A DNA stretch of 64,000 nt from Desulfomonilia bacterium (GCA_050014195.1 JBEKDT010000007.1:96001-160000); one strand, 5' to 3'. Shown: positions 18,667 to 41,123, counted from the first letter of the stretch. Notes: a model not told the origin generated them from the sequence alone. A program made the numbers and translations.

Positions 18667-19173
18667 GCCCTCATACTTATACTATTTCGATATTTTGTAG
18701 ATCATAAGTAAGGCACCTCTGATTATAAAGAATTCTCGCTGATATATCCAATCTGATAACAATGAAGAGTGCTTATAGAAATCTATGGATTGGTTATCCA
18801 TTGATCGGGATTAGATCTCCATCAGCAATCTGCATTCCTTCTCAACCATCAATACCTCAAGATCTGTATTGTTATGATGGTGTCATTTTTCGAAAGATCA
18901 TGGAATTATCTAAACACAAGAACAAGACGGTCAATTCTGTCAATCACTATAGGAGATTATTACTCTTATATATAGAAGCAGTCATCTTATCAGTAAATTG
19001 ATAGATGCTTGTTTATAACAATTACATACTCATCAAATTCTTCGCTATTCAAAGATAAGAAGTGTTTGGTGGAATGTTTATGATCTTTTATAAATTCATT
19101 CAAACTATTCAAACATTCCCCTTTTATAATCTTTAGAAATAATATAGTAATAATATAGAGAGCTTAATATATA

Positions 19174-19986
19174 ATGAGTGATGTGAAGACATTTTTACGT
19201 TGGGCAGGAAGTAAGAAGAGGCTCCTATCAAAAATACGCCCCTACTGGGGTGATGGTTTCACTCGGTATATTGAACCATTCATGGGTTCAGCGTCACTAT
19301 TCTTTGCGATAGAGCCATCTAAAGCAGTTCTGTCTGACATAAACACAGCCCTTGTCGAAACGTTTTGTGCGGTGCGGGATCACCCTCGTGCTATATATAA
19401 CCGATTAATGCGCCTGCCGTTGGGAGAAGAAGCTTATTATCGAATTCGTAAAGTAGAACCTTCGAGACTGCTTCCCATTGACCGAGCCGCACGTTTCATC
19501 TACCTGAACCGGTTTTGCTTTAACGGCCTTTACCGCACTAATTTGAAAGGGGATTTCAATGTTCCGTATGCCGCCTCAAAGACTGGCCAGTTACCTACAC
19601 AAGACGACCTATACAAATCAGCAAAAGCCCTATCTTGCGCTTATATAAGTGCAAGAGATTTTGAGGAAACAATTCATGATGTTCAGCCAGGCGATTTCAT
19701 CTACTTAGATCCTCCATTTGCTGTCAAGAATCGAAGAATCTTTCGCCAGTACGGACCGGATTCTTTTGGAACGGAAGATCTTGCCCGACTCTCTTCAGCA
19801 CTTAGTGATATTGATCGTTGCGGTGCGACATTCCTCGTGAGCTACGCTATCTGTCGAGAGGCCATGGAAGCATTTAAGGGATGGCATATTCGACGAGCAC
19901 AAACACAACGTAGTGTCGCAGGCTTCTCAAGACATCGAAGAAAAGCCATTGAACTACTCGTCTCAAACCGCGAATTACCGGAATAA
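19174..19986 (+). CDS. Dam-like (D12 class) N6-adenine DNA methyltransferase
   Basis: LRWAGSK, EPFMGSAS, SDIN, YLNRFCFNGLYR.N..G.FNVPY, IYLDPPF. Confidence 0.92.
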   Translation: MSDVKTFLRWAGSKKRLLSKIRPYWGDGFTRYIEPFMGSASLFFAIEPSKAVLSDINTALVETFCAVRDHPRAIYNRLMRLPLGEEAYYRIRKVEPSRLLPIDRAARFIYLNRFCFNGLYRTNLKGDFNVPYAASKTGQLPTQDDLYKSAKALSCAYISARDFEETIHDVQPGDFIYLDPPFAVKNRRIFRQYGPDSFGTEDLARLSSALSDIDRCGATFLVSYAICREAMEAFKGWHIRRAQTQRSVAGFSRHRRKAIELLVSNRELPE

Positions 19987-20021
19987 TAACAATATATTCA
20001 AATATTCAAACAGGGGCCACA

Positions 20022-21272
20022 ATGATTAAACTTGCAATAATGAGTGATCTTCATGTGGGACTGGCAGCTCGGTCAAAAGATCTCTGCCCTAAGCCATCTA
20101 ATACACAAAAGAACCGCCTCGCTAGATACAACAGAAAAATTGAAGATGCTTTTAAGCATAATTTTATCAAATTCGTTAAGGACAAGAATAACGAGATCTC
20201 TGCAGACTACCTTGTTCTTCCCGGAGATATTACCAGTGAAGCGAAACCGCCAGAAGTTCAACTCGCTTCAGAATTTATACTACAGGCAGCCGATGCTCTT
20301 GGTGTGGCACCCCATAAGATTGTTTTTGCTCCCGGAAATCACGACGTGGACTGGTCTGTGATCGATCCAAGTGATAATACAGGAGTGAGGTGGAGACAAA
20401 GATATACTCCAATAGGTGATGAAGGCTTTCATTTTAAGAAACTTGTGGACAAAGGAGAAGGTGACGTTTTCTCAACCCCGTATTTTGTAGCATGGAACTT
20501 TGATGATCTCCTTGTCGTTAGCTACAACTCGGCCAGCCATGATTCTCCCATTCACAAAGATGCTGCACATCATGGTCTTGCAGACCCTGATCATATTAAA
20601 AAGCTCCGTGATTACCTCACGGGTATAGGAACTGCGGATACTAGATTTCGTATTTTCATTGTTCACCATCACGTACATGATTTCAGCATGCCTATACCCC
20701 GCGACCCCGATTTCAGCCTAATGACAAATGCTGAAAGCCTGCTGACTCTTCTTCATGAGAGTTGTTTTGACATGCTCATACATGGTCACAGGCATCATCC
20801 ACGTTTCGAAACTCACAGCACTCAAACTTATCCTCATCTCCCAATCCTTTGTTCCGGCAGTTTCTCTGTCGAGATCGACACCCGATGGACGGGAACTATA
20901 GATAATCAGTTTCATTTAGTAACAATAAATGAGAGATCAGGGTGCGAGAACCAAATCACAGGTAAGATAACAAGTTGGGCATATAATCACTCCAGAAAAT
21001 GGTTTCCGAGTGAAGAATCAACAAGTGGCATTCACCACATTATTCCTTTTGGAAGCTATGTAATGCCTCATGAACTTGATGCACGTCTCGAGCCCTTCAT
21101 TAGACATTGGCTGACTAATCATGAATATATACTATGGAGGCATATTGTTGAAAATTTCCCAGAATTGGAACACCTCCCTCTTAGCAGTGCAATTGCGGCA
21201 TTTGATAGGATAGCAAGTCTTTTTAATAGGAAGAGCATGCATAAAACCTTAAATGATCTTATTCTATACTAG
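20022..21272 (+). CDS. Calcineurin-like metallophosphoesterase
   Basis: SDLH, PGD, PGNHD, HHH and HGHRH metal-binding motifs; C-terminal extension. Confidence 0.9.
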   Translation: MIKLAIMSDLHVGLAARSKDLCPKPSNTQKNRLARYNRKIEDAFKHNFIKFVKDKNNEISADYLVLPGDITSEAKPPEVQLASEFILQAADALGVAPHKIVFAPGNHDVDWSVIDPSDNTGVRWRQRYTPIGDEGFHFKKLVDKGEGDVFSTPYFVAWNFDDLLVVSYNSASHDSPIHKDAAHHGLADPDHIKKLRDYLTGIGTADTRFRIFIVHHHVHDFSMPIPRDPDFSLMTNAESLLTLLHESCFDMLIHGHRHHPRFETHSTQTYPHLPILCSGSFSVEIDTRWTGTIDNQFHLVTINERSGCENQITGKITSWAYNHSRKWFPSEESTSGIHHIIPFGSYVMPHELDARLEPFIRHWLTNHEYILWRHIVENFPELEHLPLSSAIAAFDRIASLFNRKSMHKTLNDLILY

Positions 21273-21284
21273 GAGAGTCAAGCT

Positions 21285-23168
21285 ATGGGAAACGAACTAC
21301 CAAAACATAGACGAAACCTCTTCGAAATCGAGAATGCACGGAATCTATCTAGGCAAGAATTAGTTGATACTTTCATACCCACACAATCGTTTTGGCGCCT
21401 TCTATCAGCAAAACATCATGTGGTTTTTGGGGCTCGTGGCCAAGGCAAAACAGCGTTGGCAAAAATGTTGTCCCATGACCATCTCGCCTTAATGGCACAG
21501 AGACGAGATGAACCACGCGCTCGATCAGCTGTTATCAATCAGGAATTTATCGGGATCTACCTTCCTACACGTCTAGAATGGGTTGGGGGCTTGAAAAATA
21601 AGCCTTGGTTGAACGAGAGGGAACAAGAAGAATTCTTCCAGTGGCATCTCAATATAGCCAGTTGTATAGCTTTTACTCCAATAGCAAGGAGCTGTATTAA
21701 TACTTATATTGAGGGAAAAGCAAAGCAAGCGGAAGCCGAAAGAGAATTATCGCTACAACTATCTAGAGATTGGATAAATAGACAGGAAAACAAATTCGAT
21801 GACCTTCTGCAACTTCGACGCCATTTGGAGTATACTGACTATCAAAAGCATATTCAGATCCTGCACAAACGAGCGACAAACCAAATCACTGAAGGTGATA
21901 TATCAGAGGGAATTGCTTTTGCTACTGACCTCTTTTCTCCTTTGAGACAAGGAATACGGCGACTTTCACATCTTCTTTCAATAAACACTAATTGCTCATG
22001 GCTTCTCTGCATTGATGAAGCAGAGTTCCTTGATAAGATTTATCAACGTATAATAAATTCACACATGCGTGCCTACCCAGATAACTTATTCATTAAAATG
22101 ACAACCATGCCATACTGCCATTATACGCTTGCAACAAATATTGGACCGGACTTGGTAAATGGACAAGACTTTGAATATTTGAATATGTACTCAGACCGGG
22201 TTTTTGAAGCCCGTGCTGATGGAGAAAATGAAACAATTGGGACGCTATTTGGTAGGACTCTCTTCAATAAACTTATCGATGCCTCTGATATCCAATTTCT
22301 AGATTCATATCATAGGGAGCCACCGAATATTATGGATGTTTTAGGCGAGAGCAAAATACTCGATCCACATCGCGAAAACTGGGGTGTTGAATCTGAAAAT
22401 ATGAAATTACTAGAAAAGTATGCATCACAAGAGACTGTTGCTCGTGCGAATAAGTTGGCCGGAACTAGTAGATTCCGTGATGAGATAAGTAGGAAAATAC
22501 ATGGTGCATTGTTGCTCCGCAAAGAGGTTGACGAATGGAGAGGAAACAAAGCGTTAAAGGTATATTCTGGAGCAAGGATGGCCATTCGTTGCGCAGATGG
22601 CAACCCAAGATACTTAATCAGGATATTTAATGCACTTCTTATGATTCGTACTAAGAAACAAAAGGCCCTTATGGCTAAAGGGCTCAAAGTGAACAAAATT
22701 TCAGCAATGGATCAAACTCGTGCCATACGTACATTATCTTCTAATACATTGAACCAAGTGAGCGGGTTTGTTGATATCGGACCTGAATTATACTCGTTTA
22801 TCTGCATGCTTGGTGAGTATATGAAAGATTCTCTCTATGAGAAACCGCTAACTACTGATCAAATAACCTCGGTAATAATTGATGATACTTTGTCGGAAAA
22901 AGAGTTGGAACTCATACACGCCGCAGTAGGTAATGGTCTCTTACATCCGAACGTTAATAGTTCGAATCCAGACGAAATGCCTTTGCGAGAAGGAACGTAT
23001 CGTCTGACCTATACTCTCGCACCTCATTTTCTTCTTTTGCCAAGACGTGGGAAAGCAGCAACACTCTCAACAATCAAAAAGTTCAACAATATGGTACGAA
23101 AAAAGAAATATCCATTAAAGAGTATTGAGCATGATCAACTTTCCTTGTTCGATGTAGGAGATAAATAA
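21285..23168 (+). CDS. ORC/CDC6-like (STAND-related) P-loop ATPase
   Basis: Walker A GARGQGKT, Walker B LLCIDEAE, GQDF and DGNPRYLI motifs, probable C-terminal wHTH. Confidence 0.75.
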   Translation: MGNELPKHRRNLFEIENARNLSRQELVDTFIPTQSFWRLLSAKHHVVFGARGQGKTALAKMLSHDHLALMAQRRDEPRARSAVINQEFIGIYLPTRLEWVGGLKNKPWLNEREQEEFFQWHLNIASCIAFTPIARSCINTYIEGKAKQAEAERELSLQLSRDWINRQENKFDDLLQLRRHLEYTDYQKHIQILHKRATNQITEGDISEGIAFATDLFSPLRQGIRRLSHLLSINTNCSWLLCIDEAEFLDKIYQRIINSHMRAYPDNLFIKMTTMPYCHYTLATNIGPDLVNGQDFEYLNMYSDRVFEARADGENETIGTLFGRTLFNKLIDASDIQFLDSYHREPPNIMDVLGESKILDPHRENWGVESENMKLLEKYASQETVARANKLAGTSRFRDEISRKIHGALLLRKEVDEWRGNKALKVYSGARMAIRCADGNPRYLIRIFNALLMIRTKKQKALMAKGLKVNKISAMDQTRAIRTLSSNTLNQVSGFVDIGPELYSFICMLGEYMKDSLYEKPLTTDQITSVIIDDTLSEKELELIHAAVGNGLLHPNVNSSNPDEMPLREGTYRLTYTLAPHFLLLPRRGKAATLSTIKKFNNMVRKKKYPLKSIEHDQLSLFDVGDK

Positions 23169-24115
23169 TGAGATCTATCCAAGTGATCGATACTGATTTT
23201 GATTCAGTGTGCGAGGAACGATACGATGTCTCATTGTTCTCCAGCGGATATGAATCGAGATGTATTCATATACCCCATTTCATCAATCCCTGTACAGTTA
23301 CTAACCCGCTTGTTTTAGGTTTCATGGAGGAACCACATTCAGGAAAAAGAGATGATAATGATAAGTTTTATCGAGAACAATGGAATCTTGACCCCCTTCC
23401 ATTGAGCAGAGATGACGAGAAGCCAATCTATGAGCATCTTTACAAACACACACGTTTACATCAAGTTAAACGTCCCATTAAGATCCTTATGGACTATTCA
23501 TCCATGTCACGCCTCTGGTATGCTGCGGTTCTGAACTGGGCTCGTTTGGGAACCTGCCCCAAGGATATAATTATTGATTTCATATACTCAATGGGCAGAT
23601 ATGAGGAGGATGAGAATCAGCCTATGGTTATCCGTGGAGACATGCCTTCCATACCTGGATGTGAAGGTCGTGCTTATCGTTTACGAGAGTCAGTTGCAGT
23701 CTTTGGGCTTGGATCTCATGGGATGACCGCTCTTAGTGTTCTTGATCGGCTTGAGGCAGACACTGTATATACCTTTCTGGCTATAGGTGGATCATCGGAA
23801 CATATAGAGAAGATAAGAAATAACAACAAAGAACTTATAAATAGCCATAAAACAAAAGGTAATCTCGAATTACCCTTGGCAAGCGTAGAGAACTGTTACC
23901 GCCATCTCGCGGAGACCATTGCACCCCATCGGCCTGACGGAGAAATAACGCTTGTACCAATGGGACCCAAACCGCATATTCTAGCCTCAATCCTTGTTGC
24001 AATGCGTTTTCAGGAAGTCGCTTGTCTTCGAGTCAGCGGCGCGCCTGCCCCACAAGATGTAAATCCTACAGGTGACATTGTGGCAACACGTGTAATTGTG
24101 AGAGGGGAACCTTAA
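23168..24115 (+). CDS. Hypothetical Rossmann-like protein (CARF-like by motif)
   Basis: Overlaps the ATPase stop (TAATG); GYESR, DYSSM and LVPMGPKPH motifs; fold assignment is inference. Confidence 0.6.
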   Translation: MRSIQVIDTDFDSVCEERYDVSLFSSGYESRCIHIPHFINPCTVTNPLVLGFMEEPHSGKRDDNDKFYREQWNLDPLPLSRDDEKPIYEHLYKHTRLHQVKRPIKILMDYSSMSRLWYAAVLNWARLGTCPKDIIIDFIYSMGRYEEDENQPMVIRGDMPSIPGCEGRAYRLRESVAVFGLGSHGMTALSVLDRLEADTVYTFLAIGGSSEHIEKIRNNNKELINSHKTKGNLELPLASVENCYRHLAETIAPHRPDGEITLVPMGPKPHILASILVAMRFQEVACLRVSGAPAPQDVNPTGDIVATRVIVRGEP

Positions 24116-24426: not shown

Positions 24427-25152
24427 CTATATCAGTTTATCCTGCTTAGAAACCCAACCTTGCAAGACCCTGGTTATGGTTTGTATATCCTCTGAGATGA
24501 GGCTCTCCTGCTGCTTTGAGAGGTATGTTGTGAGATACTTTATATTGACCACAGTGATTCCTTTAACCGGCATACGAACTATTACAAATGCCCGAGTAAA
24601 ACAGAGGATTGGCTTTACTGCCCATTCCCTTGAAGTCTGCCTCTTAAGAAAATCTCTGAGTTGATAGGTTTGGCTCCATGTCTGGTTCAAGAAATTCTTA
24701 GGAGGTTGAACACCATCCAATAAGAGGGTATCACCTTGGGCATCAATTTTTCCTTTATGGCTCTTTGTTTCCACAAGAAAGATCCCACCTGGACCTACCG
24801 CAACATGATCTATGTTAAAGCCATCGAATGCAATGTCATGAAAAACATGATAGCCCTCCGGAAGATTCATGAGCCTTTCAGCAACCACTTCTTCAGCACA
24901 GGCACCACGATCAGCATCTTTTGCTCTCTTCTTTATGTAAAGACCTTTCTTTTCTATGTGATCTGCAACCAGTTTGATAACAACGGCAAGGATTATAGCG
25001 GCAGGAAACCCAAGTTTGACCACGGTATTAAGGTTGGAGAGTAATAGAAGACCTATAATAAAGAGCAAAGCCGCGTAGATTGTCACCTTCTTATAACGCT
25101 GCTGAGCCATTTCACGAGCGTTTTTTCCGGCTGTTCCGTGACTGTTCATCAT
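24427..25152 (-). CDS. Membrane-anchored NERD-domain nuclease
   Basis: Two TMs, then GACAEE..FHD..NIDHVAVGPGGIFLVETK. Confidence 0.85.
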   Translation of the reverse strand: MMNSHGTAGKNAREMAQQRYKKVTIYAALLFIIGLLLLSNLNTVVKLGFPAAIILAVVIKLVADHIEKKGLYIKKRAKDADRGACAEEVVAERLMNLPEGYHVFHDIAFDGFNIDHVAVGPGGIFLVETKSHKGKIDAQGDTLLLDGVQPPKNFLNQTWSQTYQLRDFLKRQTSREWAVKPILCFTRAFVIVRMPVKGITVVNIKYLTTYLSKQQESLISEDIQTITRVLQGWVSKQDKLI

Positions 25153-25642: not shown

Positions 25643-26905
25643 TCAGTAAGCCTTAACGATGGGCAATTCTGCCCATGAAGTGGTAAACCTTGCAGATTTT
25701 CTTGTTTGCCTCATCCACCAGGGCCTCGTGAATCCAGAGGCAGCATGAATAAGTGTTCCTCTTCCCCATCGTCGATTGACTTCATCCATGGTCTTCATAA
25801 GGGCTAATTCTCTTTCTCCCTCTCGTGAAGAATGGAACAGGTTCATTTGTACCTGGCCACGCTGTACGATGCCTGAGAGCATGACTCCAACCTTCCGATA
25901 GGCAGGACCCTTGTGATAGACACGTTTCAAGAGAGCCTTGGAGTAACGGATAAGATCAGGGGTGTAGGCTGTTGCCACAGGTATGGCCGTAGAACAGATA
26001 CGGGTTTTGGGGTGCCCATCATTGAACGGGAATTCCATGAGTATTACCTGGATAAATGATGCCGCTGAGTTCTGTTCACGAAGCTTTTCCGCTGCCCTGG
26101 CAATATATGCTGCTGCAGCCTCCTTGAGTTCATCAAGACTATATACCTTGCGCCCGAAGGATCTGGAACACATGATGGATTTCTTTGGCTGCACTGCTTC
26201 ATCAAGAGGAATGCAAGATGTACCTCTCAACTCCATAACCGTACGCAGTCCAACAATGGTCATGTGTTTTTTCACCCATTCATCTGGTGTATTTCTCAGA
26301 TCCAAAGCTGTTAGGATTCCATGACGTCTGAGGAGTTTTGCATATTGCCAGCCGATGCCCCAGATGTCTCCCACTTCGATATCGGCCAGGGATTCTTCAA
26401 TCCGGTTTGAGATATCGAACACCCCTTCATGCTTAGGCACTTTCTTAGCGATCTTTCCCGCTATTTTAGCCAGGGTTTTTGATGGACCTATACCTACTGA
26501 CACAGGTATGTGAGTGCTTATCTTTACGGTTTCCCTTATGGTCGTCCCATATTTGGTGAGGTCACCAGGTATGCCATCAAGATCCAGGAAGGCTTCATCT
26601 ATGCTGTATATCTCCATGTCCGGAGAGAATGTTGAGAGTATCTCCATGACCCGGCGTGACATGTCACCATACAAAGGGAAATTCGATGAGAAGACATACA
26701 CCTTGTGCTTAGTTATGAGATTCTGGCACTGATGAATGGGCTCGCCCATCTTGATGCCGAGACCCTTGGCTTCGTTGGACCTGGCAATGATACATCCGTC
26801 ATTATTACTGAGCACTACAACCGGCTTATTCTCAAGGTTAGGGCAGAAAATACGCTCACAGGAGGCGTAGAAGTTGTTACAGTCAATGAGGGCAACTCTG
26901 TTCAT
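25643..26905 (-). CDS. umuC: Y-family DNA polymerase V subunit UmuC
   Basis: DCNNFYASCE, VVLSNNDGC, YSIDEAF, SRSFG, C-terminal W.MR...S.RFTT.W. Confidence 0.95.
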   Translation of the reverse strand: MNRVALIDCNNFYASCERIFCPNLENKPVVVLSNNDGCIIARSNEAKGLGIKMGEPIHQCQNLITKHKVYVFSSNFPLYGDMSRRVMEILSTFSPDMEIYSIDEAFLDLDGIPGDLTKYGTTIRETVKISTHIPVSVGIGPSKTLAKIAGKIAKKVPKHEGVFDISNRIEESLADIEVGDIWGIGWQYAKLLRRHGILTALDLRNTPDEWVKKHMTIVGLRTVMELRGTSCIPLDEAVQPKKSIMCSRSFGRKVYSLDELKEAAAAYIARAAEKLREQNSAASFIQVILMEFPFNDGHPKTRICSTAIPVATAYTPDLIRYSKALLKRVYHKGPAYRKVGVMLSGIVQRGQVQMNLFHSSREGERELALMKTMDEVNRRWGRGTLIHAASGFTRPWWMRQTRKSARFTTSWAELPIVKAY

Positions 26906-26907: not shown

Positions 26908-27369
26908 TTACTTTGTCTTACGGAATATATGCAGTCCGCTCGTAACCACACCCCTTACTTCAAGGTCCATATTGTCCGTGATTTCGATAGGCGGGTATTT
27001 AGGATTCCCTGCAAGCAAGAAGCACTTCTTGTTATCAGGCTGACAATGGAACGTCTTGACCACAAACTCTCCATTGATCATAGCAATCACAACATCACCG
27101 GACTTAGGTTGGAGTGACCAGTCCACGATGAGGATATCTCCGGATTGAATACCAGCTTCAATCATGGAATCCCCTTCAACCCTTACAAAATACGTAGCTG
27201 CAGGATGAGCTATAAGAAACTCGTTCAGATCGAGATGCTTATCAATGTTATCCTCAGCAGGAGAGGGAAACCCAGCTGATATACGTACCTGATATAGAGG
27301 CAGCTCAAGCCTGGTCTTTGGTTCATAGTCCCATATCTCAGTGACATGCATTTCATTGGTCCTGGTCAT
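26908..27369 (-). CDS. umuD: UmuD (S24 peptidase)
   Basis: SAGFPSPA, VEGDSM and VVK catalytic motifs; adjacent to umuC. Confidence 0.95.
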   Translation of the reverse strand: MTRTNEMHVTEIWDYEPKTRLELPLYQVRISAGFPSPAEDNIDKHLDLNEFLIAHPAATYFVRVEGDSMIEAGIQSGDILIVDWSLQPKSGDVVIAMINGEFVVKTFHCQPDNKKCFLLAGNPKYPPIEITDNMDLEVRGVVTSGLHIFRKTK

Positions 27370-27496
27370 AGGGTAAAGATTCTATCACTCCACCGGATCA
27401 GAGTAAAGGATGGGACAGAAGAGAATACAATAGCTGTATGGACTTTTCAAAGGACCCTGATATCTATAGGTGTATCAACAGGAGGTAAAGAAAACC

Positions 27497-28171
27497 ATGT
27501 GTGGCAGATTCATCCAGATATCTGATCCCGAGAAGATAAAGGTCAGTATCCCTGACCTGGAGATAGATGATACTGTGCGTGAGAAGTTCAAGCAGCACTA
27601 TAACATTGCCCCTACTCAGGACATCCTCACAGTGTTGAATACCTATCCTCCCAAACTTACTTTCACCCATTGGGGTCTGGTGCCTTTCTGGGCAAAGGAT
27701 AAGAATATCGGATACAAGATGATCAATGCCAGAGCTGAAACCCTTATGACAAAGCAATCATTCCGAGAACCACTAAAGAAACGTAGGTGCATAGTCTTCT
27801 CTGATGGGTTCTATGAATGGAGTGTGGATAAATCAAAGACACCTTACTTCATTCATATGAGATCCGGAGAGCCGTTTGCTTTTGCCAGCCTATGGGATCA
27901 TTGGACTGATAAGGAGACTGGTGAGACTATCAACTCAAGCACCATCATCACTACAGAGGCCAATCCACTTATAGTTGGAATCCATAACAGGATGCCAACT
28001 ATACTTGATCCTGATCATTACCAGGTGTGGCTGTCTCCTGAACCTGTTCCACAACAATTACTGTTGGAATGTCTCCATCCGTATCCACATGAGAAGATGG
28101 AAGCATATGAGATCTCAAGGCTAGTAAACAGTCCACGAAATGATTCAGCGGAGATCATTAAGCCAATTTGA
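27497..28171 (+). CDS. SOS response-associated peptidase (SRAP/YedK/HMCES)
   Basis: N-terminal MCGRF after GGAGG, YNIAPTQ, INARAET, GFYEW, IHNRMP. Confidence 0.93.
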   Translation: MCGRFIQISDPEKIKVSIPDLEIDDTVREKFKQHYNIAPTQDILTVLNTYPPKLTFTHWGLVPFWAKDKNIGYKMINARAETLMTKQSFREPLKKRRCIVFSDGFYEWSVDKSKTPYFIHMRSGEPFAFASLWDHWTDKETGETINSSTIITTEANPLIVGIHNRMPTILDPDHYQVWLSPEPVPQQLLLECLHPYPHEKMEAYEISRLVNSPRNDSAEIIKPI

Positions 28172-30120: not shown

Positions 30121-33100
30121 CTACAACACTCGTTCCATGAATTCACCAAGGGGGTGCCTTAAAGCCTCCGCAGCCGCAACAAGCAAGGTCTTCAGAGTAC
30201 TTCTCCCGCTGTCAACGCCATCGATTGTTTTGAGCAACGCAGGCACAGATATGCTTGGAGAGTAAAACTGAAAACGGTTCTGAGCATGCCTACGCCAGGA
30301 ACCAGCGAAGCACCGAGCAACGTGTCGATTGAAAAGCACTTGACGGGCGACACTTTTGTCGCTCATAAGCCCTGAAGTCAAAAAAGCTTGAAATTGCAAA
30401 GTTTTTTCGGGGGGTAACATACCCTGTAATAATCGGGCTGCAGCTCCACAACGCATGGTCGATGGAGATGCAGTGTCAATGGTGGCTGGTTGAAGTAAAT
30501 CAGCAGGTAGTGAGGCCCCCTTGAGGAGCAACCGAATATTGTTCGTCAGAACAGCTTCTTCACCGAGGAGTTGGTTACTCACATCGAGCCAGAGCTTCAA
30601 GTGAGCTAGCAAATCTGCGCCTGTACAAATAACACCAGCACACAGCAGACCAAACCAGCTTTCAGGAGCAATTGGAAAACTTGATTTGGGTACATCATCT
30701 TGATCCAGCAGGGTCAGGCCCTGTTGCATGTTAACTGATAACTCAGCTGTAGCTCTGTCGAAGGCCAAAAGAGTCTCAATGAAACCAGCCCCTGCGCCAG
30801 TGGAATAAGCCAATGCGAGTTTTGCTTCAATCGCAAACCATCGAACAACGAAGTACCTTGAAGTCTCCAACACTTCCAATTCCTGAGCAATCCCTGCCGG
30901 TTCCTTCTCCAATGTCGAAACTAGGTGCAGAATTTGAGCTCGGGTTATCTCGCTACGAGCGACTTGCCCGGGCTCGATCTTGGAGACTTTCAGATCGGGT
31001 GAGCTAGCATATCCTGGCTCAAACTGTGGCTCGATCTGAGTTGTCTTCCACAGGCTATTCTCGATTGTTCTGTAAACCGCAAAAGCTGCTCGTTGCACTG
31101 CTTCCCATCGTTCATCATCTTCCACCGCAGCCTCTGCTGGTAATAACAAGACAGCTTCTGCCAATAGCCTTGCCGCGATGGCCTGGTCTCCTGTAAGTGA
31201 TATTGCTAACGCTGCATCCACCTGAAGTCCGAATTTGGTTAGCGCAAAGGAACCTGGCTGAACGGAATTTGCAGCGTTAAGGAAGATTTGTCCTGCTTTA
31301 TCCCATTGTTTGAGTCGAGCGGCACTTATGCCAGCTCGTCGATAGGCAAACGGGTCGAGAGTAGTTCTGCTGACGGGGTCATTGGTCAACTGATCCCAGA
31401 TCTCAAGAACGGATTTATCATCTTGTGCGTGAAAAAGGACGTTGGCTCGCTGCTCCATGAGCACGACCGACGGACCGAATGCCATCTCGGCTTGTTCAAG
31501 TACAGAGAGAGCCTCTTCACTTCGTTTAAGGTACTCTGTCAGAATGATTGCTCTGGCTTTCGCAGCTTCTCGGCCAAATCGAGGTGAGGCTCGTCGCTTC
31601 GCGTACTCTTCTATACGTTCAAATAGCTCTATCCAGGGATTCCAATCCTTAATTTGTTCATGTGCAGTGGCCCATGCACTATGTACGAATGCACCTAAGC
31701 TCTGAACGAGAGGCCATTCCAGCATTGCATCAAATTGCTGCCTAATGTCTTCTGTTGCAACGTTATCCAACCAGTGCAACAATTCGTCGAGGTTGCTCAA
31801 CTCGCGAATGCTTCGACTGGCATAAAGAAATATTACTTGGGTTATTGTTCCACCTTTGGGCATACCGTCTTCTGCATTGGCATTTTCAAAAAACTGTATA
31901 CCCAAATTTGAGTGAGCATCTAAAATCTCCCTCGGTAGCGTTGGAATTCCCATGATGGCCTCAAGGCGAAATTTGAGCGGTATCTTGGAATTATCTGTAA
32001 AGCTTGCAGAGTGCCACATCATCGCGTGGCTTATGGCCTTGGCCATAGGGTGCTGAATCCGCTCAATGTCATCTTCCCATCGTGCACAGATTTGAGGTAA
32101 GCACTCTGTATTCAACGTCAATGCAACCCGAAATTGTAACCCTCTCAGAATCGCCCCGGCCATCGCATCATCCGTGATGGATTGTCCGGTCTCGAGTGCG
32201 ACAAACGGCAGCCATAGGAGTTGTCGCTCAACTTCACATTTTGCATCTTTACCATCTATTAATTGGAGTCGTATCGCTGTCTGGGCGAGCCGTCGAGGTT
32301 CACCTCCAATGTATGCGTGGAAAAGAAGTGCGGCAGCCTCAAATGAGTCAAGTGTGTGTTTGGCTAGGATGGCGTCATGCAGGCAGATGTGTGCCCATTT
32401 GCGTTTCTCCGGAGACCAGACATCTATCGCGACTCCGCTGAGTAGCGCCGTAGTTCGAAACCACTGACCTTCGACCAGCTCAAGCCATTTCCCAGTGAGA
32501 TTGTCGAGGACATCCCCCCCGTTTGTAAGCCCCTCAACGGCCTCAGCCAGTCGAATCGCAATTGATCTGTGCATTAGTATGGAGCATTCAGAAACCATAT
32601 AGACAAACTCAGCAATAGGGCCAGGCACAGAGTCGCTGAGTAGCTGTCTGGCCATCTGATGAACTGAAGTCACCGCCGATGATTGTGTGACGAGGTCAGT
32701 TGCATTAGGTCTTGGCCAGTTGCGAGCAGCAATTTCGGCTAACCGAACCTGGACAAGTTTAGGATGGCCTCTCGTCCACGCCGTAATGAGAGTGCTCCAG
32801 TACTTGGCAATCTCATGTGGACAACCGTGTTCGATGCACAAAGTCTCAGTTTCATCGGAACTGAGCTCAGGTACTTCGAGAAGCTCGATGTCGTTGAAAT
32901 CCTGTACAATGGCCGAGTCGCTAGTTCCCCCTCGTGCGGTAAGAAGGATGCCTCGCCCTGAAGAACAAGCTCGATGCAAGACCAACGCAAGCGAATCTCG
33001 ATAGACACGGTGAGCCGACGGGCTGATATCCAGGTCATCGATAATAATTAAACTTGGGCAATACCCACTTTCGATTTGGCCTGCTAGTGCGAGAAGCACG

Positions 33101-34188
33101 CTGTCGACTTGGTCGACCATTCTCTCGGTTAGATTGATCCACCATGCCTCAGGGCACAGAGTTGAAGTAACAAGCTGTGCAGCTGTTGTCTTACCCTTGT
33201 AAACTGTACCAGTCAGCAAGACGACCTTGCGATGCTTGACCAAATCCTTCAGACGATGCGTGAGTGCAGGTCTTCTAAGTAGAGGCTCGGGCGGTCTTGG
33301 TGACTTCTCAAGCAAGAGATTAAGTAATCCCAATCCAGGCTGTACTTTAAAAATCAAAGCTTGGAGCTGATCCACCGCCACCGGTAGGTATATAGTGCTT
33401 GCTGTTTCGACCTGGCGAAGCAAATCGCCTCGGGTCAGATACCTTCTTGCAAGCGAGGGCTCCACAATAATCTCCCAGAAGCGGGACTCGAGATACTTTC
33501 GCACGGTTGGAATTAAGGCCAAAGAGCGTCGTTGATTGCTAAGGAAGACTGAGATACGGTCGTCAACACTTCGTTTGACTACATCAAGGTCCGGCTGATT
33601 GGTGAGCCAATGAAATCTTTGGATAAGACGTTTCTGGGCATGTTCTGGTGTTGTAGAAGTCAGGAACGCCTGTAACGGGCTGCTTTTATCCAGTTTTGAA
33701 ATAAGGTACTTTATCACAACAATGGCTAATTCGAGATTAGTCTGAGCTGCTCGCCAAACCTCAATGCCTTTTAAACCATCAAAGTTAGCATCCTGTTCCA
33801 TAGCAATGGAGCTGGTGGTCAGAAAGTGAAAGTCGATTTGTCGGTTCGATTCTTGGCTGGACAGGGTCCAGAAGTTCTCTAACGCCTCATGCGCTTTGGC
33901 GGTACCTAAAGAGATAGTCCCCATGTTCCGCTTGACTTGAACTGTGATAGCGGAATCAGTCCTGACAATGTCGAAGTCTTCTGCGCCTTCAAGGTAGATG
34001 ACTTCATCTGCATCAACTAACCGGAGCCATGCATCAATAGACCACCAAGCTTGATATACGTCCCCATAAGTTGAAGATACAGCTTGCCGCCGAGGGTCCC
34101 CAGCTAGTTGTTCAGGAAGACCTGTGATTTTTGCAAGAATATCGTCAATGTCTGGCAGACCACCAAGTCTAGATTCATGGTCAGGCAT
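30121..34188 (-). CDS. PD-(D/E)xK nuclease - STAND NTPase - helical repeat protein (Avs-like)
   Basis: N-terminal YQ..EGAEDFD..VQVK nuclease motif; Walker A GTVYKGKT; Walker B LIIIDDLD; GHP motif; long TPR-like C-terminus. Confidence 0.75.
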   Translation of the reverse strand: MPDHESRLGGLPDIDDILAKITGLPEQLAGDPRRQAVSSTYGDVYQAWWSIDAWLRLVDADEVIYLEGAEDFDIVRTDSAITVQVKRNMGTISLGTAKAHEALENFWTLSSQESNRQIDFHFLTTSSIAMEQDANFDGLKGIEVWRAAQTNLELAIVVIKYLISKLDKSSPLQAFLTSTTPEHAQKRLIQRFHWLTNQPDLDVVKRSVDDRISVFLSNQRRSLALIPTVRKYLESRFWEIIVEPSLARRYLTRGDLLRQVETASTIYLPVAVDQLQALIFKVQPGLGLLNLLLEKSPRPPEPLLRRPALTHRLKDLVKHRKVVLLTGTVYKGKTTAAQLVTSTLCPEAWWINLTERMVDQVDSVLLALAGQIESGYCPSLIIIDDLDISPSAHRVYRDSLALVLHRACSSGRGILLTARGGTSDSAIVQDFNDIELLEVPELSSDETETLCIEHGCPHEIAKYWSTLITAWTRGHPKLVQVRLAEIAARNWPRPNATDLVTQSSAVTSVHQMARQLLSDSVPGPIAEFVYMVSECSILMHRSIAIRLAEAVEGLTNGGDVLDNLTGKWLELVEGQWFRTTALLSGVAIDVWSPEKRKWAHICLHDAILAKHTLDSFEAAALLFHAYIGGEPRRLAQTAIRLQLIDGKDAKCEVERQLLWLPFVALETGQSITDDAMAGAILRGLQFRVALTLNTECLPQICARWEDDIERIQHPMAKAISHAMMWHSASFTDNSKIPLKFRLEAIMGIPTLPREILDAHSNLGIQFFENANAEDGMPKGGTITQVIFLYASRSIRELSNLDELLHWLDNVATEDIRQQFDAMLEWPLVQSLGAFVHSAWATAHEQIKDWNPWIELFERIEEYAKRRASPRFGREAAKARAIILTEYLKRSEEALSVLEQAEMAFGPSVVLMEQRANVLFHAQDDKSVLEIWDQLTNDPVSRTTLDPFAYRRAGISAARLKQWDKAGQIFLNAANSVQPGSFALTKFGLQVDAALAISLTGDQAIAARLLAEAVLLLPAEAAVEDDERWEAVQRAAFAVYRTIENSLWKTTQIEPQFEPGYASSPDLKVSKIEPGQVARSEITRAQILHLVSTLEKEPAGIAQELEVLETSRYFVVRWFAIEAKLALAYSTGAGAGFIETLLAFDRATAELSVNMQQGLTLLDQDDVPKSSFPIAPESWFGLLCAGVICTGADLLAHLKLWLDVSNQLLGEEAVLTNNIRLLLKGASLPADLLQPATIDTASPSTMRCGAAARLLQGMLPPEKTLQFQAFLTSGLMSDKSVARQVLFNRHVARCFAGSWRRHAQNRFQFYSPSISVPALLKTIDGVDSGRSTLKTLLVAAAEALRHPLGEFMERVL

Positions 34189-34741: not shown

Positions 34742-34777
34742 GATATGTGTTATAGTGATTATCTGAGAGGGGTTGGA

Positions 34778-35839
34778 ATGGGTGAAAATCAGCATCAAAT
34801 CGCTATACGAAATAATTCTTATGAGATCAGCATCCCTGAAGGTGATCAGGACACCTTATACTTCTGGCTGAAAAATTATCTCGAGCATGCCGTCACTACC
34901 GCAGAGAACTCCCGCAAAGTTCAGGTGAGGGACCTATCGCTCTTCATCCGGTTCGCTGAAAAAGAAGGCGCTCTCATGAGATCGGTGTGGACTCCCAGGT
35001 TATCCCGGGCGTTCATAGACTTCCTGAGGACAACCCTCAGGTCCGGAGGACAACGGTACTGGGCAGACAGGACTATCAACCGGATCCTGGCGCACGTGAA
35101 GACCTTTGCGAAGTGGATCCACAAGCTTGCTCCTTTTCCGCTTGGGAACCCCATGGGGAATATCAGGCTCATGGGGGTAGGGGAGAACCTCGATATCGAA
35201 CGGGCATTCTCCGATGGCGAACGTCGCAAGCTGCTCGATGCTGCAGACCTTCTGCCTTCGGTCTGGGGGAAGAGTAGGGACCGTAGGAGAAATAAGAATA
35301 CTGAACCTGTGGCCAGGCCCAGGAGGAAGTACGCACGCCCATGGCGCAACCGGGCCATGATGTATACCTTGATCGAAACCGGCATGCGCAGGGCTGCATT
35401 AGTGAATATCAATATCAGTGACATTGACTGGGATCATCATCTTATCATTACAGTAGAGAAGGGTGGGTATTCCCATTCCTATTCAATCAGTGATCAGGGA
35501 TTGAAGGCGATCCTAGATTATCTGGCCGATGAGCGTGAAGTGGATAAAGGAGAGGGATTGAATGCTCTGTTCCTGCCGGCAAGTACCATCCGGAACAGCA
35601 GTGGCCGTCTTACACCCCTCGTGGTCAACCATGTATGGGACGAGGTGTGCACTCTTGCCCAGGTCTCAGGTAAAACACCGCACTCTGCCCGGCATGCTAT
35701 GGGGAGGCACATTATTGAGAAGACCGGGAACATTGCTGCAGTCCAGAGGCAGCTTGGGCATAGGAATGTAGCTTACTCGGTGCAATATGCGAGGGTGTCA
35801 AATAAAGAGTTGAGGGATGTGCTAAATAATCGATCATGA
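34778..35839 (+). CDS. Tyrosine recombinase (XerC/D-like integrase/resolvase)
   Basis: ETGMR, EKGG, PHSARH, LGH and terminal Y catalytic residues. Confidence 0.92.
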   Translation: MGENQHQIAIRNNSYEISIPEGDQDTLYFWLKNYLEHAVTTAENSRKVQVRDLSLFIRFAEKEGALMRSVWTPRLSRAFIDFLRTTLRSGGQRYWADRTINRILAHVKTFAKWIHKLAPFPLGNPMGNIRLMGVGENLDIERAFSDGERRKLLDAADLLPSVWGKSRDRRRNKNTEPVARPRRKYARPWRNRAMMYTLIETGMRRAALVNINISDIDWDHHLIITVEKGGYSHSYSISDQGLKAILDYLADEREVDKGEGLNALFLPASTIRNSSGRLTPLVVNHVWDEVCTLAQVSGKTPHSARHAMGRHIIEKTGNIAAVQRQLGHRNVAYSVQYARVSNKELRDVLNNRS

Positions 35840-35926
35840 ATCCTTTGTCATGCTTAACTCTGTTAAACGATCCATTAATGCGTATGTAGGAACATTGAAT
35901 AATCTAATGGTATTCTATTAGTTCAT

Positions 35927-37537
35927 ATGCTTTACGACCATATAGGCTATCTATATGTAAGGAAACAGAATGGTCAAGCAAGGATGAAGAAGAGCGGTGA
36001 TTCCAAGAAGATTGAACGTCGTTTCCGTGAACTTCACACTACTCTGTGTGCTCTGATCGATAAAGATCCAAAGTTGGCAATCAAAGCTGCTCATGCGTTA
36101 ACTCCTGATGATGTTTTAAATGAACAAAACATCAATGCAATAAGGGCAGGGATACTGATTGACGCAGGAATTTATGGGAATGATGTTCAAACCGTAGATG
36201 AAGGTATTGCCTTATATCAATGTATTTTGGATAGCGTTCCAAACAGAGGCGACTTCCAATACTGTCTGGCTAACGGACTTGTAGGAAAGGCTGATCTCCT
36301 CTCATACTCAGGCCCAGAATGGTTCTGCTTAACAGCAGAACTGCGACGAAGGGCTAGATACCTATACCGATTCGCAGGAGAAGAAGAGATTGGTTCTGTT
36401 ATTGCCTCACGATCACTCACCAATCTTGGTAATTCCCTAATAAAAGCTTACCGATTTATCGAGGCATACGACTGTTATCTGAGTGCATTAAAGCATGACA
36501 CCTCTAATGGAGTTGCTCTGACTGGTGCTGCAAGAATTCTTCTGCGATTCGCCAACGAAGGCACTGGGGACCGTGGTGCCTTACTCGCTGTTGCTGCTCG
36601 ACATTTACAAACTGCGCGAGAGAACCCTGACAGGATTCGTGAGCTAGCTGGAGAGCGAGCGTTCAGAGAATTATCTAAATTGATGAAGACCAAGATTGTT
36701 GGTGGGGCTGTGCCGGACTTGGCTACGGCTACTGATTACCAGCTGTTTGTGGCAAACCATCGTTTGGCCTTGGCTCCAACCATTGAGGGTCTCGACCTAT
36801 CTATGTCACGGTGGGATTCGCTTCGCATCAAGAGCATTACCGAGCATATGAACACCGAGGATTGTATTCCTCCAATCTTCGCGATGTTCAATGTACTCAA
36901 ATCTGACTATTTAACAGCTCGGTTCCTAGCATATCTGGCTTTAGAAGGTGAACTTAACGACAGTGGTAAATACTCCGACACACTGGACTATGCAATCTAT
37001 GGCATGCGGTCTTCGGTTCTTACACTTGCCCAGAGGGCCTGTATGGACATCCTCGACAAGATTGCAGTTGGAGCTAGCGAATATCTTGGTCTCCCAGGCA
37101 ATTATAGGTCAATCAAATTCCCGACGAGATGGTTCCTAAATCCAAATGATGAAGAGCAACTAACCTGGCAATCTGATGTATTCGACGAAATTAAATTAGG
37201 GAACACAGCTTTGATTGCTTTATCTGAGGTCTCTTATGACCTTCAGAAGAGCGGATTCCTGCAGGAGAAGAGGTCGATTCGAAACACATCAACACACCGT
37301 TTTACGGTGCTGCATGACCTTGATAAGAGAACAAGCCGAAAGTGTCGATACATTGACCACTATGTCATGGAAGCTTTCAAGGACCAGTTGATAGAAACTC
37401 TCCAACTTACGCGAGCTGTTTTATTTTACTTTGTCGAAATGATCAATCTTCGTGAGAAACGTCTATCAAGAGATGGGGTGCTGCCTCTACACGTCCCAGA
37501 TCATGACTGGATCCGGGGCGAGGATGATGAGCCGTAG
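35927..37537 (+). CDS. TPR + HEPN (LA2681-like) protein
   Basis: TPR-like NLGNSL..AYDCY..AL; DILDKIA; RNTSTH (RxxxxH) HEPN motif. Confidence 0.8.
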   Translation: MLYDHIGYLYVRKQNGQARMKKSGDSKKIERRFRELHTTLCALIDKDPKLAIKAAHALTPDDVLNEQNINAIRAGILIDAGIYGNDVQTVDEGIALYQCILDSVPNRGDFQYCLANGLVGKADLLSYSGPEWFCLTAELRRRARYLYRFAGEEEIGSVIASRSLTNLGNSLIKAYRFIEAYDCYLSALKHDTSNGVALTGAARILLRFANEGTGDRGALLAVAARHLQTARENPDRIRELAGERAFRELSKLMKTKIVGGAVPDLATATDYQLFVANHRLALAPTIEGLDLSMSRWDSLRIKSITEHMNTEDCIPPIFAMFNVLKSDYLTARFLAYLALEGELNDSGKYSDTLDYAIYGMRSSVLTLAQRACMDILDKIAVGASEYLGLPGNYRSIKFPTRWFLNPNDEEQLTWQSDVFDEIKLGNTALIALSEVSYDLQKSGFLQEKRSIRNTSTHRFTVLHDLDKRTSRKCRYIDHYVMEAFKDQLIETLQLTRAVLFYFVEMINLREKRLSRDGVLPLHVPDHDWIRGEDDEP

Positions 37538-37620: not shown

Positions 37621-38511
37621 CTATTCATTCCAGAGGCTGATCACAGCATTCAGAAAGATATCACAATTTGCATTCGACCATGACGTGTGTGAATTATCAC
37701 GAAGAAGATAATATTGCTCATTTGCGCACACCAGATTGGTCTTATCTGCTTCAGTTTGAATCCAGTCAATTGCATTAACAAAGCAGTCTTGAAAAGAGGT
37801 TGTAAACAAATGATTGGGAACATTGTAAAGGAGGCCTTCAAGGTAGTACGAGGGAGCAGTACCTCCTTTGATGATGCCTTCATCTACAAGTTTTGAACGC
37901 ATATTCTTAAGAATTCGAACCATTGGTTTGAACCACCTTTTGGTACCTTGGTGCTTGGTTGTAAGGTTTGCAGAATGTTGTTTGGGGTAATTTGCAATAC
38001 TTATACCTTCAGAGGTGTAGAAACAGATTCCTTCATAGTAAAGTTGGTCATCTATACTTTTAAACCTGTAGTACCGTCGGTATTGAATTGCAGCAATAAC
38101 ATCAGCCTTTCGACGACTTCCATTAGCGGCAATGGCTATTGCTTTATTTCCGGCGAGAACATTCCGGCCATATTTGTCCTTAAGAACCCTTAACACATCT
38201 CGTTTGAAGTCGTTATACGTGTATGTTGCATCAGGAAATGTACCTTTATAAGCGTTCTGATCATCCGGAGATAACGCACTAAGGTCGCTTTGGAAACAAT
38301 CGTCTAGTTTAATTACAATGTCAACATCACTCTCAGCAAAGATATTTGTATCGTTCCCGTATGAGCCTTGAAGAAACACGGAAAAATTCTTGGCTGCATA
38401 TGGTGTATCAACAGCTACCAACACAGTCTTAATTGTATTGTAAGTGGAACTAGATTGAGTGACGGACCCTTGATGTGACCATGTTTCGAGTTGAGATTCA
38501 AGAATTGCCAT
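37621..38511 (-). CDS. cdnE: CBASS CD-NTase, CdnE-like
   Basis: [12 protein letters not shown]-terminus, [35 protein letters not shown]. Confidence 0.88.
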
Positions 38512-38525
38512 GGCATTTCTCCTGA

Positions 38526-39482
38526 TTAAAGTAAAATATTTTTAAGCTGGGCTTCTCGCGCAGCAAAAGATTCGCGTCCTCTCTGGCGCAATAAGTTTAA
38601 TTTATCTAGGTCATGTTCCAACAGATCGGTTGCCAGTTCCGGCTGATCGAATGTATCGCTGATACGAATAGTGGTGACATCCTTGAAGAGGACTTCACGA
38701 AGCTGATCCATCGATTGTGTATTGATCTCTAATGTTTTCTGTAATAACTGAACGCTAACAAGATTTCTGGCTATGCGCATTTTGAAGCTAGGTTTTGGTT
38801 CAGGATATATACCGACACCAACATTAACTGCTCGGATGTCTTTCCGTTCCTTTTGTAAACCTGAAACAGCTTCAGCAATCGCATACAGAGTTGGGTTATT
38901 TGCACAATAGCCCCCATCGAGGAGCTCAATCTTATCGCCTGTAGCTGTATTAACGATCTTTCTTTTGAAGAAAGGATATGCTGAACAGGATGCTTGTACT
39001 GCATCAGCGATGCTTACTCCAAATCCTGGTATGAATGTCCCTTGGCGGCCATGAGCTTGTTCAATACTTCCTTTAAAAATCATTGGTTTCTCAGTCATCC
39101 ATCTTGTGGTAACAATTCCAATCCTAGTTTTTACATCTTCAAAAGATCGATCGCCGAAGACCTCTTTGGCAAGTTTTGACAATTCTGCAGACCTTGAACT
39201 TGGAAAACTCTTTGCCATGACACTTGGCACATGCGTCTTATACAGGTTGTGAATTTCATCGATTTCATACCCTAGAGCAATAAGCGAAGCTATAATCGCC
39301 CCAGTGCTAGTTCCAAATACAAGATCAAATCGTTTATAAAGAGGACACTTGAGCATGCCCTCGATTTCTTTAAGGACACCCAGCGTATAGAATCCCTTTG
39401 CACCTCCACCGTCAAGTGCAAGTATACGAAAAATACCATCTCTTTGGTACTCGGCCGTCAATCCCGTGGTGAGTTCCCCCAT
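38526..39482 (-). CDS. CBASS patatin-like phospholipase effector (CapE-like)
   Basis: DGGGAKG, GTSTG and DGG motifs; 14 bp upstream of the CD-NTase. Confidence 0.9.
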
Positions 39483-39623
39483 AATGAGCCTCTAGTATAA
39501 GAAATGATTGTTTATCCAGACATTAAGTATTCTACAATATGCTATTTTAAAGCATAATCTATATTGTTGTGGGTTCTTATTAACTTGAATAGCCATTTTT
39601 CATTGCAATAATACATTTCTTCC

Positions 39624-39968: not shown

Positions 39969-39996
39969 ATCGATCTCCTTTTATTCAGATGTTAGA

Positions 39997-40419: not shown

Positions 40420-40555
40420 ATATCCCCCTTTTTAAGGCTTTATTTTTAGTTTGATATTTCCTCTTATATTTTTGACTGCCGGCCGTAGCCTAACCAACAA
40501 TATTACTGTCAGTATTATTTTATTTGACTCTCTCCATTGAATCTGTCATTAATCT

Positions 40556-40623: not shown

Positions 40624-40707
40624 GGGGGAGATTTTCCCTTCTGGCTTTTAACTCCTCATTGAGGACACAACACGATTCTTATTAATGAAATGAAAGGATA
40701 ACAGGGA

Positions 40708-41121: not shown

Positions 41122-41123
41122 AT

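Follow-up and report, generated by a model that had tools for sequence, protein, structure and literature searches.

Why should a mobile element carry a DNA adenine methylase together with a calcineurin-like phosphoesterase, an ORC-CDC6-like ATPase and a protein with CARF domains? The question is raised by a cassette of four genes at positions 19174-24115 of a stretch of 64,000 nucleotides from a Desulfomonilia bacterium (GCA_050014195.1 JBEKDT010000007.1:96001-160000), which is referred to here as the window and within which all coordinates are counted. The original prediction, made on reading the sequence, was of an undescribed four-gene defence system. The comparison of related loci points to a core of three genes whose fourth companion, a Dam-family methylase, would be carried by the module wherever the host has none. 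We tentatively regard the cassette as a mobile anti-phage module of a Metis-like kind, in which a CARF-ATPase sensor would respond to genome degradation in a Dam-dependent manner, and we give this reading a probability somewhat short of one half.

Organisation of the cassette

The four open reading frames (ORFs) are co-oriented on the plus strand. In the ORF listing of the window, genes 1 and 2 are 35 bp apart, genes 2 and 3 are separated by 12 bp and genes 3 and 4 overlap by a single base, exactly the tight linkage first described. The block was also said to be richer in AT than the conjugation genes, and this holds: the GC content is 0.40-0.43 between 18 and 25 kb, and the genes of the type IV secretion system just upstream (12-18 kb) have 0.50-0.54. 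Non-coding DNA does flank the cassette on both sides, although to call these tracts long was generous, as they measure only 172 bp upstream and 311 bp downstream. Beyond the upstream 172 bp lie three small ORFs without family matches. The upstream intergenic region itself (19002..19173, plus strand) reads as AT-rich and is presumed to be the promoter region; a scan for consensus promoters and terminators found no convincing plus-strand promoter upstream of the cassette (13 sites in the whole region scanned, against 17.3 expected from shuffles). Among the plasmids of PLSDB no near-identical DNA was found.

An obligate trio spread across phyla

Two collections of loci were compared. The first was anchored on the ATPase and comprised 44 loci, with one genome per species, and the second was anchored on CARF6, the PADLOC family of gene 4, and comprised 80 metagenome loci and 2 loci from IMG/VR. 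All ORFs of the collected loci were scanned with hidden Markov models and phmmer, and 127 loci had matches. The phosphoesterase, the ATPase and CARF6 occur in that order in 95 of these 127 loci, and in 29 of the 32 loci without the full trio a contig end interrupts the sequence within 300 bp. Since most of the incomplete loci are truncated in this way, the phosphoesterase-ATPase-CARF6 trio is obligate. In locus L007 the ATPase was found by tblastn, its ORF being broken by 23 N. The CARF6-anchored loci behave likewise: gene 3 is present in 75 of 82, the seven misses having at most 124 bp of upstream sequence, and gene 2 is present in 56, the 19 misses having at most 148 bp upstream. The linkage of the cassette is far beyond chance. 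The four-gene unit first proposed thus stands in part, the trio being obligate and Dam often adjacent to it, but the core consists of three genes and Dam can come from the host.

Two loci deviate in their gene content. In L017 (Flagellimonas, 172-1167) a transposase of the insertion sequence family IS3 occupies the place of the phosphoesterase. In L047, a distant relative from a Myxococcales metagenome-assembled genome (MAG; 18-1901), one ORF matches both phosphoesterase and ATPase, which are possibly fused, and no CARF6 follows. A further locus, L049, was left aside; it has a distant match to PF24389, the Pfam family of the ATPase (66.8 bits), and no other cassette gene in its 4.7 kb.

The carriers belong to Pseudomonadota, Nitrospirota, Thermodesulfobacteriota, Verrucomicrobiota, Acidobacteriota, Gemmatimonadota, Bacteroidota, Bacillota and Mycoplasmatota, to which a Planctomycetota MAG (L036) and, from the homologue search alone, an archaeal MAG can be added. 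Homologues of gene 3 are 60-71% identical in several bacterial phyla and in the archaeal MAG, and since the ATPase is so similar across phyla the distribution points to horizontal transfer of the cassette. Within the class of the window PF24389 was found in 3 of 122 genomes, and in none of 14 further genomes from its genus. The ORFs that flank the other loci, 145 in all, include integrases, transposases, relaxases, toxin-antitoxin, restriction-modification (R-M), AbiH, Abi_2, DndB and Schlafen-like genes. The examination of gene neighbourhoods that had been suggested as a check therefore shows a module that recurs in defence and mobile-element contexts across phyla. A conserved fifth cassette gene was considered and rejected, as these flanks are variable.

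Some individual loci are worth recording. On the Serratia locus L029 (4391-13498) a trio without Dam lies between a P4-type integrase and a primase-helicase plus an Ash gene, a layout that resembles that of a phage satellite. Two contigs of the viral collection IMG/VR (L130 and L131) also carry a trio without Dam. Two metagenome contigs (L050 and L051) encode a CARF6 protein 100% identical to that of the window, with the same cassette layout and spacing.

Probable dependence on Dam methylation

Gene 1 (19174..19986, plus strand) encodes a Dam-family N6-adenine DNA methyltransferase of 270 amino acids. It matches TIGR00571 (Dam) of NCBIfam with 2.8e-59 and 201 bits, the cut-off being 114.85, and PF02086 of Pfam with 1.1e-41, and the DPPF motif previously pointed out is confirmed by the Dam alignment. 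Its nearest solved relatives are the GATC methylases DpnM (1.1e-39) and Escherichia coli Dam (2.3e-28). Gene 1 is probably GATC-specific and would write the mark on which the module depends.

Adjacency of Dam was counted in the 73 loci in which the trio is flanked by 1 kb or more on either side. Of these, 53 have Dam as a neighbour of the trio: 47 upstream and four downstream on the same strand, and two downstream on the opposite strand; in the other 20 it is not adjacent, and two of these (L042 and L046) have Dam 2-3 kb away. All eight genomes without a cassette Dam that were tested (Morganella, Cedecea, Vibrio, Pseudoalteromonas, Serratia, Enterobacter, Paraglaciecola and a Chitinophagaceae MAG) have an above-cut-off Dam elsewhere. 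Conversely, the cassette Dam is the sole above-cut-off copy in 5/5 tested genomes (two Pseudomonas, Ferrigenium, Flagellimonas and a Verrucomicrobiae MAG), and likewise in the genome of the window itself and in genome G109, which makes seven of seven overall. As to the background, an above-cut-off Dam occurs in 6 of 122 genomes from the class of the window, two of these copies being cassette-borne, in 0 of the 14 other genomes of the genus and in 3 of 14 control genomes. Because cassette and host Dam are complementary across genomes, we infer that the trio depends on Dam-type methylation in the DNA of its host and that a single source of it suffices.

The distribution was also followed on a tree of gene 3, a 'quick' LG+G4 tree with long-branch warnings that omits L050 and L051 and serves only to delimit the Dam-less clade and to count changes. 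A clade of 15 rows without Dam unites Enterobacterales, Vibrio, Alteromonadales and the two viral contigs, and it is sister, with a support of 98, to a Dam-bearing clade of Pseudomonas. The Dam-less state requires six changes on the tree, of which at least five are forced.

A first alternative is that the cassette discriminates DNA in the manner of an R-M or bacteriophage exclusion (BREX) system. Dam would protect GATC sites, the ATPase and the winged helix-turn-helix (wHTH) tail of the phosphoesterase would scan DNA and fire on foreign DNA that is unmethylated, the phosphoesterase would be a nuclease or a DNA-triggered effector that depletes nucleotides and the CARF protein an allosteric regulator. 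The close linkage of Dam, which is usually the first gene of the operon (47/53), its replacement by host Dam where this is present, and the fact that the closest solved methylase, DpnM, belongs to a genuine GATC R-M system would all be expected from it. The cassette nevertheless differs from DpnII-type R-M in having three unrelated partner genes in place of a restriction endonuclease. No restriction endonuclease family was recognised for genes 2-4 in Pfam, NCBIfam or PADLOC, as had been claimed from the absence of such a motif in the four genes, and no cognate endonuclease was found beside the methylase. Moreover, a single methylase family is found in all loci, whereas R-M specificities usually diversify. 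We regard this as the main alternative, though a rather unlikely one, and further evidence on it is given with the genes concerned.

The association of the methylase with mobile DNA bears on another explanation, namely that the module serves the maintenance of mobile elements, as an addiction or DNA-metabolism module, for example through post-segregational killing when the methylase is lost. Addictive R-M modules pair a methylase with a potentially toxic enzyme, a layout that the cassette shares, and it resides on a conjugative plasmid in the window and in mobile contexts always. Addiction to the element would be defeated, however, in the 15 members of the clade without methylase, which use the Dam of the host. 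In addition, the neighbours are typical of defence islands and the effector domain is homologous to a validated anti-phage effector (PMC13092281). A non-immune role appears very improbable.

The phosphoesterase and its Metis relatives

Gene 2 (20022..21272, plus strand) encodes a calcineurin-like metallophosphoesterase of 416 amino acids with a C-terminal helical, wHTH-like tail, and its product is the predicted effector. It matches PF00149 (Metallophos) in Pfam with 2.6e-9. Its top NCBIfam match is NF053862 (DS9_1, 'anti-phage phosphoesterase'; 4.5e-23), residues 7-283 aligning with positions 199-475 of the 486 of the profile. The metal motifs, which the original prediction held to be intact, are so in the alignment of 36 orthologues, in which D9/H11, G68-D69, G105-N106-H107-D108, H215-217 and G255-H256-x-H258 are invariant or nearly so.

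DS9_1 leads to a group of recently reported defence systems. DS-9, identified by DefensePredictor, consists of a metallophosphatase and a HAD protein and was validated against phage (PMC13092281). It is the same system as Metis type I (10.1101/2025.11.05.686725) and PUA-Cal-HAD (10.64898/2026.01.15.699771), its component DS-9A being also known as MisA or PUA-Cal. In MisA a PUA-like sensor is fused to an NAD+ diphosphatase of the calcineurin-like kind, which is activated specifically by N6-methyl-deoxyadenosine monophosphate (m6dAMP), MisB is a HAD protein that clears basal m6dAMP, the defence conferred by Metis type I is lost in a dam deletion and escape mutants map to the phage denA gene (10.1101/2025.11.05.686725). 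The enzyme cleaves NAD+ or depletes deoxynucleoside triphosphates (dNTPs) and requires host Dam (PMC13092281, 10.1101/2025.11.05.686725, 10.64898/2026.01.15.699771). Relatives linked to an N6-adenine methylase were noted by both groups (10.1101/2025.11.05.686725, 10.64898/2026.01.15.699771), and one of them predicts a 'putative type III Metis', whose operon joins a MisA homologue with a methyltransferase named MisD (10.1101/2025.11.05.686725).

The cassette shares with Metis type I the phosphoesterase domain of the MisA/DS-9A effector, the dependence on Dam methylation, which is experimental there and drawn from genome comparison here, and, by analogy, the logic of abortive infection through depletion of nucleotides or NAD+. 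It differs in several respects. Gene 2 lacks the PUA-like sensor and starts directly at motif I (D9, H11), positions 1-198 of DS9_1 being unmatched, and its AlphaFold2 (AF2) model has no extra N-terminal domain. A HAD or MisB gene is missing as well; no HAD family was found in the four genes or, at E<=1e-5, in the 145 ORFs that flank related loci. Instead the cassette adds the ORC-CDC6-like ATPase, a standalone tandem CARF protein and usually its own Dam. With the putative type III Metis it has in common a MisA-like phosphoesterase beside a DNA adenine methylase, which are 35 bp apart in the window and adjacent in 53 of 73 loci, and the idea of a self-installed mark.

The AF2 model of gene 2, with a mean predicted local distance difference test (pLDDT) score of 90.2, matches the fold of Bacillus subtilis YydB (Z 27.6), Rv0805 (Z 23), SMPDL3A (Z 22) and Mre11 (Z 17). 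A restriction-like role as a nuclease is favoured by the fact that Mre11 still matches at this level, by a short match to the 'Endonuclease' effector model of PADLOC (1e-7) and by the wHTH domain PF24408 (wHTH-Calcineurin_assc), which is matched by 6 of 36 orthologues at E<=0.01, the best with 5.5e-14. On the other side, the fold is nearer to nucleotide phosphodiesterases (Rv0805, SMPDL3A and Lmo2642; Z 22-24) and the protein nearer to the DS-9A effector than to DNA nucleases. In gene 2 itself the C-terminal helices (window positions 21099-21182) give the single best PF24408 match of the genome, yet one below threshold (15.7 bits, E 0.063, cut-off 27).

The ATPase and the tandem CARF protein

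Gene 3 (21285..23168, plus strand) encodes an ORC-CDC6-like AAA+/STAND-like ATPase of 627 amino acids, the predicted transducer or oligomerisation switch. It matches PF24389 (ORC-CDC6-like) over positions 1-570 of 571, practically the full profile, with 8.6e-92 and 309.1 bits against a cut-off of 27. The Walker A and Walker B motifs noticed earlier are invariant in 19 ATPase sequences (G49, R51, G52, G54, K55 and T56; D244 and E245). Its relatives in the Atlas include PF24389 proteins fused to kinases and neighbouring Sll1717/KAP/nSTAND-like ATPases. Because one Atlas cluster of 344 members consists of PF24389 ATPases fused to protein-kinase domains, it is suggested that the family is a reusable switch paired with varied effectors. 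ATPases of the ORC/Cdc6 class act in DNA-directed defence, for example BrxC of BREX (10.1101/2025.10.09.681413), which would again suit an R-M-like system. Nevertheless, no Brx or Pgl model of PADLOC (PglZ, PglX/BrxX, BrxC-type) matches the four proteins at E<=0.1, and in the available part of that preprint on BREX diversity nothing on this cassette was found.

Gene 4 (23168..24115, plus strand) encodes a standalone protein of 315 amino acids that is the predicted ligand sensor. It has no match in Pfam or NCBIfam and matches the PADLOC model CARF6 (PDLC01912) over its full length with 8.3e-61. The AF2 model (pLDDT 94.6) consists of two Rossmann-like halves. In structural alignment (VIA-align) residues 173-293 match the CARF domains of Can2 (Z 13.3, root-mean-square deviation 2.0, 110 residues aligned), Cam1 (Z 12.9), Csm6, Card1 and Csa3, and residues 19-292 align with Can1, which has two CARF domains (Z 12.8 over 228 residues); Foldseek gives a probability of 1.00 for Can2 and Csm6. 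By its predicted structure gene 4 is a tandem CARF without an effector domain, so that the resemblance to CARF claimed for the fourth protein is borne out, and more precisely than expected, by the structure prediction and Foldseek comparison that had been proposed.

The invariant residues of gene 4 (G27, E29, R31, D109, M113, R115, W117, Y118, Y140, G266 and K268) lie, judging from the alignment and the model, within the loops that come after beta1 and beta4 in each half. We take these loops to be the ligand-binding loops of CARF domains. A strictly conserved tandem CARF that has no effector, with invariant pocket loops, would be left without a ligand if the cassette were an R-M-like system.

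In its tandem-CARF fold and the conservation of its ligand loops gene 4 resembles Can1 (PDB 6sce) and the CARF effectors of type III CRISPR systems, but it lacks a fused nuclease or any other effector domain, has neither Cas10 nor another cyclase in its vicinity and is not associated with CRISPR, and it is predicted to dock on an AAA+ ATPase. This resemblance raises a third alternative, in which the CARF protein senses another nucleotide signal, such as a cyclic oligonucleotide from a co-resident type III CRISPR system or a cyclic oligonucleotide-based anti-phage signalling system (CBASS), a 2',3'-cyclic nucleotide or a nucleotide made by the phage. The phosphoesterase would then degrade the signal or deplete nucleotides, and Dam would be separate, with a part in epigenetic control of expression or in anti-restriction on behalf of the mobile element. 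The top structural matches of gene 4 are indeed CARF domains that bind cyclic oligoadenylates (Can2, Cam1, Csm6, Card1 and Can1), the fold of gene 2 resembles the cyclic-nucleotide phosphodiesterases Rv0805, Lmo2642 and SMPDL3A, and a CBASS cyclase is encoded on the same plasmid. This CBASS, however, is 13 kb away and does not recur, and no nucleotide cyclase (Cas10 or CD-NTase) was found in the cassette or as a conserved neighbour among the 145 variable flanking ORFs of other loci. Moreover, it would not account for a Dam that accompanies the trio (53/73) and is missing precisely where the host has one of its own. We consider such a signal improbable.

In the reading of the cassette as a Metis-like module the sensor would act through the ATPase, and the two proteins were predicted as a complex. 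The interface score (ipSAE) was 0.84 (0.83, 0.84 and 0.84 in separate runs) against 0.00 for the best control, a mark that 58 of 80 solved complexes and 2 of 110 mismatched pairs attained. Contacts agreed between runs by at least 68%, and the pLDDT of the partners was at least 85. The predicted interface joins the invariant block 94-108 of the ATPase with the inter-domain segment 152-172 of CARF6, and none of the invariant loop residues of CARF6 is named in it. Sequence searches of the PDB with gene 2, with the gene 3 profile and with gene 4 returned nothing useful, and as neither partner has a solved homologue by sequence it is unlikely that the score reflects memory of the model. The prediction supports the docking of CARF6 on the ATPase.

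Proposed mechanism

The mechanism that can be proposed for the favoured, Metis-like module is the following. Dam, probably at GATC, would mark the chromosome of the cell itself. When a lytic phage breaks down its host's DNA, m6dAMP or a short fragment bearing N6-methyladenine would accumulate and be bound by the tandem CARF, which would already be attached to the ATPase. The ATPase may then switch or oligomerise and release the calcineurin-like phosphoesterase, which would hydrolyse NAD+, (d)NTPs or both, and the infection would be aborted. The original prediction had likewise proposed, as one of two options, a methylated-nucleotide cue, sensing by the ATPase and the CARF-like protein and a phosphoesterase effector, and this part is what we favour, with Metis/PUA-Cal-HAD as precedents. 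From this analogy we infer what the ligand and the substrate would be, in which order the events would follow and that the module would defend against phage. In the most novel form of this reading CARF6 would recognise, as the first CARF receptor to do so, a non-cyclic mononucleotide with an epigenetic mark (m6dAMP released from the Dam-methylated chromosome of the cell itself), signalling through an ORC/STAND-like ATPase to a phosphoesterase that destroys NAD+ or dNTPs; we hold this to be possible, though doubtful.

Several observations weigh against this mechanism. The analogy for ligand and substrate is drawn from a system whose PUA sensor and HAD/MisB partner are both absent here, and in gene 2 the DS9_1 score of 81.8 bits, far under the equivalog cut-off of 420, denotes domain homology only. 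Without a scavenger of the MisB kind the tolerance of basal m6dAMP is unaccounted for. To our knowledge, cyclic oligoadenylates and RNA ends are the ligands found for CARF domains to date, and no methylated mononucleotide is among them. The PF24408 wHTH of gene 2 orthologues and the DNA-binding class to which the gene 3 ATPase belongs fit DNA sensing at least as well, and the complementarity of cassette and host Dam is equally predicted by an R-M-like model. This complementarity also rests on a small number of independent events, as the genome-level data concern one large gammaproteobacterial clade and L021, while in L042 and L046 Dam is displaced. L036, an incomplete Planctomycetota MAG with the locus on a 6.8 kb contig, has only a weak Dam match (31.5 bits) and counts neither for nor against the mechanism.

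The cassette is not wholly undescribed, and in this respect the original prediction went too far. No name for this architecture, no experimental work on it and no relevant paper on 'CARF6' were found in the literature. Its parts are nevertheless catalogued: gene 3 corresponds to PF24389 over the full length, 6 of 36 orthologues of gene 2 carry PF24408 and gene 4 is a full-length CARF6 of PADLOC. These are domain catalogues and computational predictions, in which no named system, no phenotype that was tested and no link to the complementarity of Dam is visible. PF24389 and PF24408 presumably derive from Nicastro et al. 2023 (NAR, 'Calcineurin-CE') and the CARF6 models presumably from Makarova et al. 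2020; both works may already describe the neighbourhood of the cassette. The 'type III Metis' is also a prediction of a related arrangement, and the text of the Metis preprint, Fig. S9 image and Table S3 excluded, contains the words 'CARF' and 'ATPase' 0 times each (10.1101/2025.11.05.686725). Three points are new here: the Dam of the cassette and that of the host complement each other, gene 4 is a tandem CARF by its fold, and the CARF protein is predicted to contact the ATPase.

The host plasmid and its neighbouring genes

The window is part of a conjugative plasmid, with genes for a Rep3 initiator, ParA/ParB, ArdC, VirB4/6/8/9/10-type proteins, a coupling protein and VirB11. The first gene after the cassette, 311 bp downstream (24427-25152, minus strand), is nuclease-related by its match to the NERD family. 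It was considered as the nuclease of the cassette and rejected, as none of the 145 flanking ORFs of the other loci matches NERD. It is followed by UmuC-like (25643-26905) and UmuD-like (26908-27369) genes, both on the minus strand, and by an SRAP/YedK-like gene on the plus strand (27470-28171). An ORF of 1355 amino acids (30121-34188, minus strand) has no Pfam match, and only its N-terminus (residues 34-242) resembles the LmuA model of PADLOC (1.5e-10). A tyrosine integrase and then a HEPN_LA2681 protein occupy 34745-37537. UmuDC, SRAP, the integrase and HEPN strengthen the impression that this region of the plasmid holds cargo and defence genes, and an IS110 element is also present in the downstream cargo.

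The CBASS mentioned above is a complete type I system at 37621-42164. It includes a CD-NTase cyclase (37621-38511, minus strand; PADLOC 2.6e-131) and a patatin phospholipase effector (38526-39482, minus strand; 4.4e-164), and with them are found a Csx23-like small protein (39997-40419, minus strand) and a CapH-like helix-turn-helix protein (40708-41121, plus strand). An ORF of 346 amino acids also lies near the CBASS.

Significance

The complementarity of cassette and host Dam offers a clean and cheap experimental handle on the module. Should the R-M-like alternative be the true one, a restriction-type system made of a metallophosphoesterase, an ORC-like ATPase and a CARF protein would be unusual as well. 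If the Metis-like reading is true, the danger signal that the methylome provides when a genome is degraded would extend to a second, widespread architecture, including plasmids and satellite-like elements, and CARF sensing would not be confined to cyclic-oligoadenylate signalling. The sensing of a shredded self genome would then have evolved at least twice, with the unrelated sensors PUA and CARF, and the orphan family CARF6 would gain a ligand hypothesis outside CRISPR. On entering a host that lacks Dam the module would install its own epigenetic reporter, which would explain the 'orphan' Dam methylases carried by mobile elements in bacteria without Dam.

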